A stretch of 64,000 bases of DNA, from NCBI RefSeq assembly GCF_045037415.1, contig NZ_CP173438.1. One strand, given 5' to 3'. Source of the stretch: Escherichia coli. GTDB taxonomy: Bacteria > Pseudomonadota > Gammaproteobacteria > Enterobacterales > Enterobacteriaceae. Shown one piece after another: positions 42,901 through 45,900 of the stretch. Every line of letters starts with the position of its first letter. Position 1 is the stretch's first letter. Position numbers: made by a program.

Positions 42901-45900
42901 TATGCCATCAGCAGCTTTAATGTGCCGTCCACGCAAATGGCGGCGGCAACGTTTGTGCTGGAAGGTCACTATCATCGCCATATCCGGCGGATGCGGCAGA
43001 TCTATCAGCGCAATCTGGCACTTTATACCTGCTGGATACGGGAATATTTTCCCTGCGAAATCTGTATTACGCGCCCGAAAGGCGGATTTTTACTGTGGAT
43101 AGAATTGCCTGAACAGGTCGATATGGTCTGCGTCGCGCGGCAGCTGTGCCGCATGAAAATCCAGGTGGCGGCAGGCTCGATTTTCTCGGCTTCCGGCAAA
43201 TACCGTAATTGTCTGCGCACCAACTGCGCTTTGCCGCTCAGCGAAACCTATCGCGAAGCACTGAAGCAAATTGGCGAGGCCGTGTATCGGGCAATGGAAT
43301 AAATTCGACATAGTGGCGAAGCGCCTGATTTACTCTCACGAATAGAGTGTGACTCGTTTTATCTTTGCAGGGTAATCGCCACGTTCCAGCATGGCTTAGG
43401 CAAAGTGCGCTTTGTTCATACCGGATGCGATGTGAACGCCTTACCAGGTCTACAAAATCTTTAAAGTTAAATATATTTAATGGGTTATGTAGACCTGATA
43501 AGCGTAGCGCATCAGGCTGCTTTGCGTTTGTCATCAGTCTCTGATTAGTACTCGATCCATGGATCGCGCTTGCTTTCAGGCAAGGGCTGATCTAATGCCT
43601 GCATTTGCTCTGCCGAAAGTCCGGTATATCGTTGTATCCATTCAGGATCCGCCCCATTCTGCAACAACAATCGGAGGAGGCTCTTTTCCCCTTCTTCTTT
43701 CCCTTCTTTCCTCCCCCTCTCCCTTCCCAACAGCCATCCATCATTATGAATTCGCTCTGCAATCGTCATTATTCGCTCCCTGTGTTGTGGCATTCGACGG
43801 ATAAGTTCGCTGATAAACTCATTAAAACGCGCTTCATCGCCAGTCAGTAAAATGTAATTTAACAGCGCGGTTATCTGGCTGTCATTAGCGCACCCTGTAA
43901 CCAGTAATACTGCCAGTTGATCAATAAGCCCCATTAGATCGCGCTGGCGAATATGCTTTTGGATCAACTCCAGCAGGGCGACTCTGCGATGCTGCACAAT
44001 CTCGTCGTCTGGCACGACAGTGACATCCACCAGCGGGAACGCTGCGGTATAAAGCTTCCGTGCGGTAGCCGGGTCGGCAAATTCATCCAGCCAGCACAAA
44101 GACCAGGGGTAAGGACTACGGCTACCGTGATAAAACAGCATCGGGATGACCAGCGGTAGCGGCCGGCGTTTATCATGCTCGATATGGCGCTGCATCACCG
44201 CCATGGAATATCGCATCAGGCGAAAGGCCATATGGATATCCTCGCGGCTCTGATGTTCAATCACCACATAAATATAGCCATCTCCTTCGCGGGTCTTTAC
44301 CGACCACAGAATATCGGAATGTAGCGCCCGCAATTTTTCATCGACAAAGCTGGCGTATTCCAGTTTTAAGCTGTCGAGATCGCACAGTTCACGTAAATCT
44401 TTGGGTAAGTGGATCTCCATAAAATCCCGCGCGGTGTCAGGGTGGGTGAGAAAAGATTTAAATAATGCGTCATGCGGCGTGCTGGTCGTGAAGTTTGTCA
44501 TGGCGATCCGTCACCTGTAGATAAGATGGCCCGACTGTAGCGACTAACAAAACCATTCTCACCCGGCAATTTCTCGTTCCCCGAGGTGCTTTCCAGGCTA
44601 TTTTTGTTCCTCTGCAAACGATACATTTTTCCGGAAACAGGCTCGCATTTTACATTTCCTGTACCCGGCAGATATTCCCCTTTCCACCGCACTCTTTTGA
44701 TTAACCGCAAATTTTAATTACACTTAAGGTGTATATTTTCTATGCAACCCATCAATTCAAGAGGTGTAATGTGCTGATGACTATTTGTAATCGTTATACA
44801 TTCTGACCTGGAGTCAGAAGGTATTTCTCTGTCTGTATGTTCACAGGCAGTGTGGTTGATTACATGAAATTCAGTACATTTGCCCGTCTCGCCTGCCTTT
44901 CGTCATTACCGACGGTATTGAATTTCGTTTTCCCCATTGGGATTCTCCGGACAAGGAGTTGTTTGTTATGCCACGTTTTTTTGCCCGCCATGCCGCCACG
45001 CTGTTTTTCCCGATGGCGTTGATTTTGTATGACTTTGCTGCGTATCTGTCGACGGACCTGATCCAGCCAGGGATCATTAATGTGGTCCGTGATTTTAATG
45101 CCGATGTCAGTCTGGCCCCGGCTGCCGTCAGTCTCTATCTCGCTGGAGGCATGGCATTGCAGTGGCTGCTGGGGCCGCTTTCCGACAGGATTGGCCGCAG
45201 GCCGGTGCTGATTACCGGGGCGTTAATTTTTACCCTTGCCTGCGCCGCGACAATGTTCACCACGTCAATGACACAATTTCTTATCGCGCGTGCAATTCAG
45301 GGCACCAGTATCTGTTTTATTGCCACCGTTGGTTATGTCACGGTGCAGGAGGCGTTCGGACAGACAAAAGGGATCAAGTTGATGGCGATTATCACCTCCA
45401 TCGTACTGATTGCGCCGATTATTGGCCCGCTTTCCGGCGCAGCTCTGATGCACTTTGTGCACTGGAAAGTCCTTTTTGCCATCATTGCGGTTATGGGTTT
45501 TATCTCATTTGTCGGCTTGCTGCTGGCGATGCCAGAGACGGTGAAGCGCGGCGCGGTTCCGTTTAGCGCCAAAAGCGTCTTGCGCGATTTTCGCAATGTC
45601 TTTTGCAACCGGCTGTTCCTCTTTGGCGCGGCAACCATCGCCCTCAGCTATATCCCAATGATGAGCTGGGTGGCTGTCTCGCCGGTGATCCTGATCGATG
45701 CGGGCGGCTTAACAACTTCGCAGTTCGCCTGGACGCAGGTTCCGGTATTCGGCGCGGTGATTGTCGCCAACACCATCGTGGCGCGATTTATCAAAGATCC
45801 GACCGAACCGCGGTTTATCTGGCGTGCCGTGCCCATTCAACTGGCCGGCCTCGCACTGTTGATTGTCGGCAATTTGCTGTCGCCACACGTCTGGCAGTGG

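Follow-up and report, generated by a model that had tools for sequence, protein, structure and literature searches.

A homopurine tract in Escherichia coli rpnD is very probably a strain-variable four-amino-acid repeat segment of the Rpn_L/Rpn_S type

In the Rpn_L/Rpn_S systems, the full-length nuclease Rpn_L is toxic, and a small protein, Rpn_S, counteracts this toxicity (Zhong et al., PNAS 2023, PMC10400941). The main text of that study describes, for all Rpn proteins of E. coli, hypervariable four-amino-acid (dodecamer) repeats, which are shared by Rpn_L and Rpn_S, start 8-20 residues past the methionine of Rpn_S and vary widely in number among strains. It also reports an internal transcription start for all rpn genes and the experimental confirmation of the RpnA_S internal start at M244. 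For RpnC, an RpnC_S with one extra repeat does not neutralise unless RpnC_L has the same extra repeat; according to the same text, neutralisation, repeat-number dependence and anti-phage activity are known for RpnA, RpnB, RpnC and RpnP2 only (PMC10400941). RpnD of strain K-12 is toxic, SOS-inducing and promotes RecA-independent recombination when overexpressed (PMC5350276). Here, we analyse the rpnD gene of another E. coli strain (assembly GCF_045037415.1, contig NZ_CP173438.1), which lies in a 64,000-nucleotide stretch of DNA referred to below as the window, and a long homopurine tract within its coding sequence. We conclude that this tract is very probably the RpnD version of the known hypervariable repeat segment, that is, an already described feature that varies between strains.

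On the + strand, positions 43681..43728 of the window form an uninterrupted run of 48 C/T residues, which is pure purine on the coding strand of rpnD (43545..44501, - strand). The runner-up purine or pyrimidine run across the 64 kb measures 17 nt, and the longest run in 2000 composition-preserving shuffles averaged 16.4 nt with a maximum of 27 nt (33 nt in a separate test with 200 shuffles). Both the reading of the sequence and these statistics show that the 48-nt run is real and far beyond chance. The second-longest pyrimidine run, TTTCTCTCCCCTTCCCC at 41508-41524 just upstream of yjiR, falls within the shuffle range. An initial annotation of this DNA had reported the coordinates, sequence and peptide of the tract correctly, its quoted 47-nt string corresponding to 43681-43727. 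It had placed the tract in the C-terminal third; gene nt 774-821 and codons G259-S274 belong to the last fifth of the gene.

The codons of the tract read GGA AGG GAG AGG / GGG AGG AAA GAA / GGG AAA GAA GAA / GGG GAA AAG AGC. This codon table, together with an allelic series in 12-nt steps, delimits four degenerate 12-nt units as the hypervariable repeat segment (43680..43727, - strand): unit 1, GGAAGGGAGAGG (43716-43727); unit 2, GGGAGGAAAGAA (43704-43715); unit 3, GGGAAAGAAGAA (43692-43703); and unit 4, GGGGAAAAGAGC (43680-43691), all on the - strand and bracketed in rpnD by AATGATGGA and TTGCAGAA. The window allele carries four G-x-x-x units made of Gly, Arg, Lys and Glu only, with the last unit ending in Ser, and the purine-only codons in all units account for the 48-nt homopurine/homopyrimidine run. 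Tandem Repeats Finder reports a period of 12 with 2.2 copies and 80% matches, and the in-register identity between the DNA units is 5-9 of 12 positions.

The position of these units relative to a predicted internal start agrees with the published anatomy. A small antitoxin, RpnD_S, is predicted to be encoded from M245 to the stop codon in the same frame as the full-length protein RpnD_L (43545..43769, - strand; 74 aa). Its ATG is preceded at a distance of 6 nt by the Shine-Dalgarno-like sequence AGGGAG, as read from the sequence (43776..43781, - strand). When the window protein is aligned with RpnA, RpnB, RpnC and RpnE of K-12, its M245 coincides with M244 of RpnA within a conserved (I/L/M)MT(I/L)A motif, and LMTIAER is conserved across the five K-12 paralogues. 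RpnD is thus predicted to possess an in-frame internal start with a ribosome-binding site that is homologous to the RpnA start. A candidate σ70-like promoter, ATGACA-18-TAAATT with a TG before the –10 region, lies ~90 nt upstream of the internal start (43856..43885, - strand; consensus match only). The underlying search returned three sites against 1.7 expected, and the candidate would fit the internal transcription start described for all rpn genes. The first of the G-x-x-x units starts 14 residues past M245, inside the published range of 8-20, and the units fill the same alignment columns as GIEK/GIQQ of RpnC and GWQE/GKLE of RpnE and YpaA. A precomputed Pfam family, PF27070, spans the RpnD_S region in homologues, and the RpnD_S sequence weakly matches that of the RpnA_S crystal structure 7TH0 (E 0.0035).

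Residues ~27-43 of RpnD_S (window 43623-43676, - strand) also resemble the designed ankyrin consensus G-H/N-K-E-I-V-K-L-L-L-S-K-G-A-D-P-N. We rejected homology to ankyrins, as the summed E-values of down to 9e-9 are inflated by the four repeats of the targets and single-repeat E-values are not significant; the likeness is probably a convergence in a helix-turn motif.

Tract length, for which a comparison among strains had been suggested in the initial annotation, does differ between them, and it does so in whole 12-nt units, never by amounts that would shift the frame. The gene is carried by 4242 of 5426 complete E. coli genomes, and allele counts rest on identity bands and systematic samples of these 4242. 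About 30% carry an allele of 921 nt, which reads NDGYIK-GEQR at this position (K-12, MS6198, FEA3, EA2), ~7.5% one of 933 nt (GREE-GEQR; O55:H7), ~29% one of 945 nt (GREK or GMEK, then GKEE-GEQR) and ~33% one of 957 nt, either of the window type or of the MS1665 type with GKVE-GERS as its last two units. A systematic sample of 60 rows contained 20 alleles of 957 nt, 16 of 945 nt, one of 944 nt, four of 958 nt (the longest in this sample), one of 933 nt, 17 of 921 nt and one truncated by IS1. For a count over the whole collection, a 90-nt query centred on the tract was used. It was found exactly in 496 genomes and at 96.7% in 911 genomes with the MS1665-type four-unit allele, whose length was constant in every sampled row; ~1229 three-unit alleles and 317 partial matches of the O157/O55 type were also recovered, and the ~1289 unmatched rpnD genomes have no tract.

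Metagenomic protein variants extend this series to between one and six units, always in four-residue steps, as exemplified by GREE-GRIE-GKEE-GEQR and the six-unit GRDE-GRCE-GKDE-GKEE-GKEE-GEQR. They stem from a protein search with the C-terminal 127 aa, whose 87 candidates are all fragments or separately called short open reading frames (ORFs) and served to collect repeat variants, not counts. Four frameshift-like proteins (P0027, P0028, P0040 and P0043), which drift in and out of frame also in tract-less alleles, look like assembly errors and were not used. An 83-aa partial protein labelled Klebsiella pneumoniae (P0023, on a 256-nt contig) shows the same four units as the window peptide, with M245 replaced by K, and reflects either contamination or transfer.

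The anatomy of the segment, its homology to the repeat position of RpnA-E and its polymorphism in steps of one unit thus match the described repeats. We propose that the C-terminal domain is made twice, as the tail of RpnD_L and also on its own as the small antitoxin RpnD_S starting at M245, and, by analogy to RpnC, that the number of units would set which RpnD_S pairs with which RpnD_L. Since toxin and antitoxin share one DNA sequence, the repeat number changes in both together. A role of unit number in RpnD_S/RpnD_L pairing is therefore probable by this analogy, and an anti-phage function of RpnD may likewise be surmised from its relatives. Alleles with one to four units, each present in hundreds to ~1400 complete genomes, provide a natural series with which RpnD pairing by repeat number can be tested.

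Several observations weigh against this reading. The DNA units of the tract hardly resemble one another more than random purine 12-mers do, with the 5-9 matches in 12 given above, and the units lack the hydrophobic residue that the main text of PMC10400941 calls typical of the repeats. The same main text contains no RpnD repeat experiments, RpnD being treated only in the supplement. The tract-less RpnD of K-12 is fully toxic and recombinogenic (PMC5350276), so the tract is dispensable for nuclease activity. The AlphaFold model of RpnD_S is of only moderate quality (mean pLDDT 67.9) and shows four helices, the first of which is broken at residues 18-22, inside the tract, instead of being extended. 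Its top Foldseek match is indeed RpnA_S (7TH0), a three-helix bundle, but without significance (E 1.7, TM 0.37/0.56).

How new units arise is indicated by a six-unit metagenomic allele, which occupies the same locus beside a gene resembling yjiR. Two neighbouring 12-mers of this allele are identical, GGTAAAGAAGAA twice (GGT AAA GAA GAA), and are preceded by a copy with one mismatch; this is the signature of a tandem duplication, and with GGT for Gly, the duplicated units are not pure purine. Unit number also appears to move between alleles. The MS1665 gene differs from that of the window at two of 136 positions 3′ of the tract and at 24 of 600 in the 5′ part, while the three-unit allele of 23CRST026 differs at seven of 136 and 12 of 600 positions, respectively. 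From this mosaicism, we infer that unit number goes together with the C-terminal module and is exchanged among alleles through recombination. Accordingly, new units would seem to originate from the tandem duplication of a 12-mer, to diverge and then to be redistributed among alleles by recombination. This favours rare tandem duplications combined with recombination over frequent slippage, and the exact tandem 12-mer together with the stability within clones described below bears on the question how the repeats expand, which the main text of PMC10400941 leaves open.

One alternative holds that purine-only coding is itself selected at the level of the nucleic acid. An AGG-rich, Shine-Dalgarno-like cluster (GGAGG/AGGGAG) could slow down ribosomes and tune the output of RpnD_L and RpnD_S or set their ratio, or a G-rich non-B structure could affect transcription or the gain and loss of units, the latter through the non-B DNA or the Rpn nuclease itself. 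For this peptide, and with codon usage taken from the long ORFs of the window, the probability that all 15 codons G259-K273 are purine-only is ~3.7e-7; all three Arg codons of the tract are AGG (1.8% usage) and lie within five codons, and all four Gly codons are GGR. G4Hunter scores reach 1.8 over 25 nt of the tract, which holds 18 of the 41 windows scoring at least 1.5 in the 64 kb, and across alleles the purine run lengthens with unit number (10, 19, 25-31 and 32-48 nt). A simpler history suffices, however: a purine-rich 12-mer was duplicated, and subsequent A<->G transitions keep the run pure. Purine-only codons can in any case encode only K, E, R or G. The run is broken by GTA and CGG in the MS1665 type (911 genomes) and by ATG in the GMEK alleles, so purine purity is not conserved in other common alleles, and the six-unit allele, with GGT as its Gly codon, nevertheless shows a fresh duplication. 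There is no canonical G-quadruplex motif in the tract, only a relaxed one with loops of up to 12 nt. The RNA fold around the tract is unremarkable as well (z -0.95), its 8-bp stem GGGGGAGG/CCUCCUCC, which closes a 29-nt loop, not being significant. We give a nucleic-acid-level property only a small chance of being correct, and consider it unlikely that the AGG/Shine-Dalgarno-like cluster affects translation or that the G-rich non-template strand has an effect. If true, such a property would offer a handle on how the Rpn dodecamer repeats expand.

It is very unlikely that the tract is a neutral low-complexity linker, which has expanded and drifted and plays no part in toxin-antitoxin pairing. 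The low model confidence across the tract, the Gly at every fourth residue, the ~30% of rpnD-bearing genomes without a tract and the activity of the tract-less K-12 allele would fit such a linker. Against it, variants differ strictly by 12-nt steps in genomes and metagenomes alike, the insertion point is the same in all paralogues and in distant bacteria, and for RpnC the main text of PMC10400941 gives direct evidence that unit number determines neutralisation.

The initial annotation had proposed that the tract is prone to slippage and triplex formation, which might explain frameshifted rpnD alleles, and had described the K-12 gene as split into yjiP/yjiQ. In K-12 MG1655, rpnD (b4584) is indeed annotated as a pseudogene and split, but the cause is different. 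Relative to the window gene, a single C-to-T exchange at nt 310 turns codon 104 from CAG (Gln; 44190..44192, - strand, alignment column 310) into TAG, ~460 nt upstream of the tract position. The resulting ORFs, formerly called yjiP (103 aa) and yjiQ (190 aa), are in one reading frame (locus L003, 4999-5310 and 5347-5919), so it is an amber codon, rather than a frameshift, that splits the gene. K-12 rpnD also lacks 36 nt precisely where the window gene has the tract, reading NDGYIKGEQRILRLL there, and hence has no homopurine tract that could slip. A genome designated K-12 MG1655 (NZ_CP010440) contains a second rpnD between glmS and pstS, the Tn7 attachment site (locus L001, 2501-3421), with CAG at codon 104. 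This extra copy agrees with the rhaBp-rpnD constructs described by Kingston et al. 2017, and its protein, WP_000181202.1, is identical to the native MS6198 allele.

Pseudogene alleles of rpnD are common, also in the O157:H7 lineage and elsewhere, but none of the five inactivating lesions examined is located within the tract. Besides the TAG of K-12, they comprise a 25-nt tandem duplication of gene nt 730-754 in the O157:H7 lineage (without any substitution when compared with O55:H7), the loss of 1 nt at nt 398 in 14EC020, a 125-nt insertion after nt 450 in CT29 and an IS1 insertion near nt 100 in AR_0369. Nor is the tract unstable on a clonal timescale. A gene of the window type (at least 99% identity over the whole gene) occurs in 495 genomes and the exact 90-nt tract region in 496, so that the ~495 window-type genomes all appear to carry an identical tract. 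When artificial window genes lacking or gaining one unit were used as queries, no genome matched at 99% or more, the best matches being the unaltered 957-nt allele at 98.7-98.8%. The tract has neither a long mononucleotide run (G5 is the longest) nor a long exact direct repeat (9 nt at most). Of the features expected for triplex (H-DNA) formation, the homopurine/homopyrimidine run is present over 48 nt, but mirror symmetry is not. In a search that allowed mismatches and spacers of 0-8 nt, the best mirror repeat had 10-nt arms with nine matches, which was equalled or exceeded in 92% of shuffled tracts, so we rejected triplex formation as having no specific support. Frequent frame-changing repeat variation among close relatives, as in contingency loci, was likewise not found. 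Despite a pure run far beyond chance, common pseudogenes and a tract length that does vary by strain, the origin of frameshifted rpnD alleles in a slipping, triplex-forming tract is scarcely credible and, for the alleles sampled, largely refuted. We propose that the tract be annotated as an Rpn_S hypervariable repeat segment, and that rpnD pseudogenes not be attributed to it.

The lesions themselves showed some further features. The O157:H7-type gene (locus L006, 401-1358, strain 111; also H27 and H78-H81) differs from that of O55:H7 CB9615 only by the 25-nt duplication, ATAATGACGATTGCAGAGCGAATTC, which includes the internal ATG. RpnD_L is thereby truncated, whereas a complete RpnD_S ORF can be read from the second ATG, with the Shine-Dalgarno sequence 25 nt further off. 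The RpnD_S ORF is also left intact by the amber codon of K-12, by the deletion in 14EC020 and by the insertion in CT29, and to judge from their sequences, lesioned alleles are possibly antitoxin-only remnants. The CT29 insertion (locus L005, ~851-975) starts with TATAC, with which the gene also resumes, and has the core GTGAATCCCCAGGAGCTTACAAAAGTAAGTGACTGGGGTGAA, which we presume to resemble the enterobacterial repeat ERIC/IRU. In AR_0369 (locus L015, 2501-3740), the flank of the IS1-truncated rpnD runs into type I hsdS/hsdM, and the strain lacks yjiR, yjiS and symE. Certain strains with the 921-nt allele (FEA3, locus L008, 1513-1827; H83 and H84) retain of the downstream yjiR only a fragment, a GntR-family pseudogene, which overlaps with the end of rpnD.

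The window gene, in contrast to K-12 rpnD, is intact. As initially annotated, it is a single ORF of 318 codons plus stop encoding an Rpn-family nuclease: the protein matches Pfam PF04754 (Transposase_31, YhgA-like) over aa 8-210 with an E-value of 5.8e-86, which places the PD-(D/E)XK nuclease domain at 43872..44480 (- strand), and scores 168.9 bits with NCBIfam TIGR01784 (Rpn family; cut-off 52.1). An identity as RpnA was rejected, since the RpnA equivalog model gave 386.9 against a cut-off of 583. The residues essential in RpnA, D11, D63, E82, Q84, R94 and D165 of the PDDE motif (PMC5350276), are all found in the RpnD translation at RpnA numbering. The gene order mdtM / rpn / yjiR is that of the K-12 rpnD position, and symE, a type I restriction-modification system, another restriction endonuclease and a BrnT/BrnA pair lie ~2.5 kb from rpnD. 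The window gene is 100% identical to WP_000181180.1 loci in many genomes; among the many complete E. coli genomes that share it without any difference are those of Nissle 1917 and of a strain called ST-131. PADLOC v2.0 contained no model matching RpnD_L or RpnD_S. In the spacer between yjiR and rpnD (43420-43535), palindromic units like those of repetitive extragenic palindromes (REP), for instance GCCTGATGCGCTACGCTTATCAGGTCTAC on the - strand, were spotted by eye only.

Compared with the Rpn_L/Rpn_S systems RpnA, RpnB, RpnC and RpnE, as presented in the main text of PMC10400941, the locus has in common the PD-(D/E)XK Transposase_31 domain at the N-terminus, the conserved internal methionine (LMTIAER) with a ribosome-binding site, four-residue repeats a few residues past this methionine whose copy number varies within one species, and the proximity to defence genes. 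It differs in its units, G-R/K-E/K-E/R without the typical hydrophobic residue (compare KGIE in RpnC), and in its homopurine run of 48 nt, which measures 11-14 nt in the K-12 paralogues. K-12 RpnD (YjiP; Kingston, Ponkratz and Raleigh, J Bacteriol 2017, PMC5350276) occupies the same locus with 93.7% nucleotide identity over the shared parts and the same essential residues. Unlike the window gene, the K-12 allele is 921 nt long, has GEQR as its sole unit and lacks the tract; codon 104 is TAG in the MG1655 reference copy, and the protein has the C-terminal tail ERERYSWLKS, which is different in the window protein.

With simple-sequence contingency loci, the tract shares a low-complexity coding repeat that is polymorphic in length within the species. 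Those loci consist of perfect short repeats and switch frame at high frequency between close relatives, whereas the RpnD tract is made of degenerate units, varies by in-frame 12-nt steps and keeps a constant length in ~495 near-identical alleles. Another parallel, an analogy drawn in the main text of PMC10400941, is offered by the TAEL repeats in HsdS of EcoR124I and EcoR124II, where a four-residue repeat lies in a long helix and its copy number alters the specificity of a defence protein. In HsdS, this number sets the spacer length of the DNA recognition sequence; in RpnD, it would set the pairing of toxin and antitoxin proteins.

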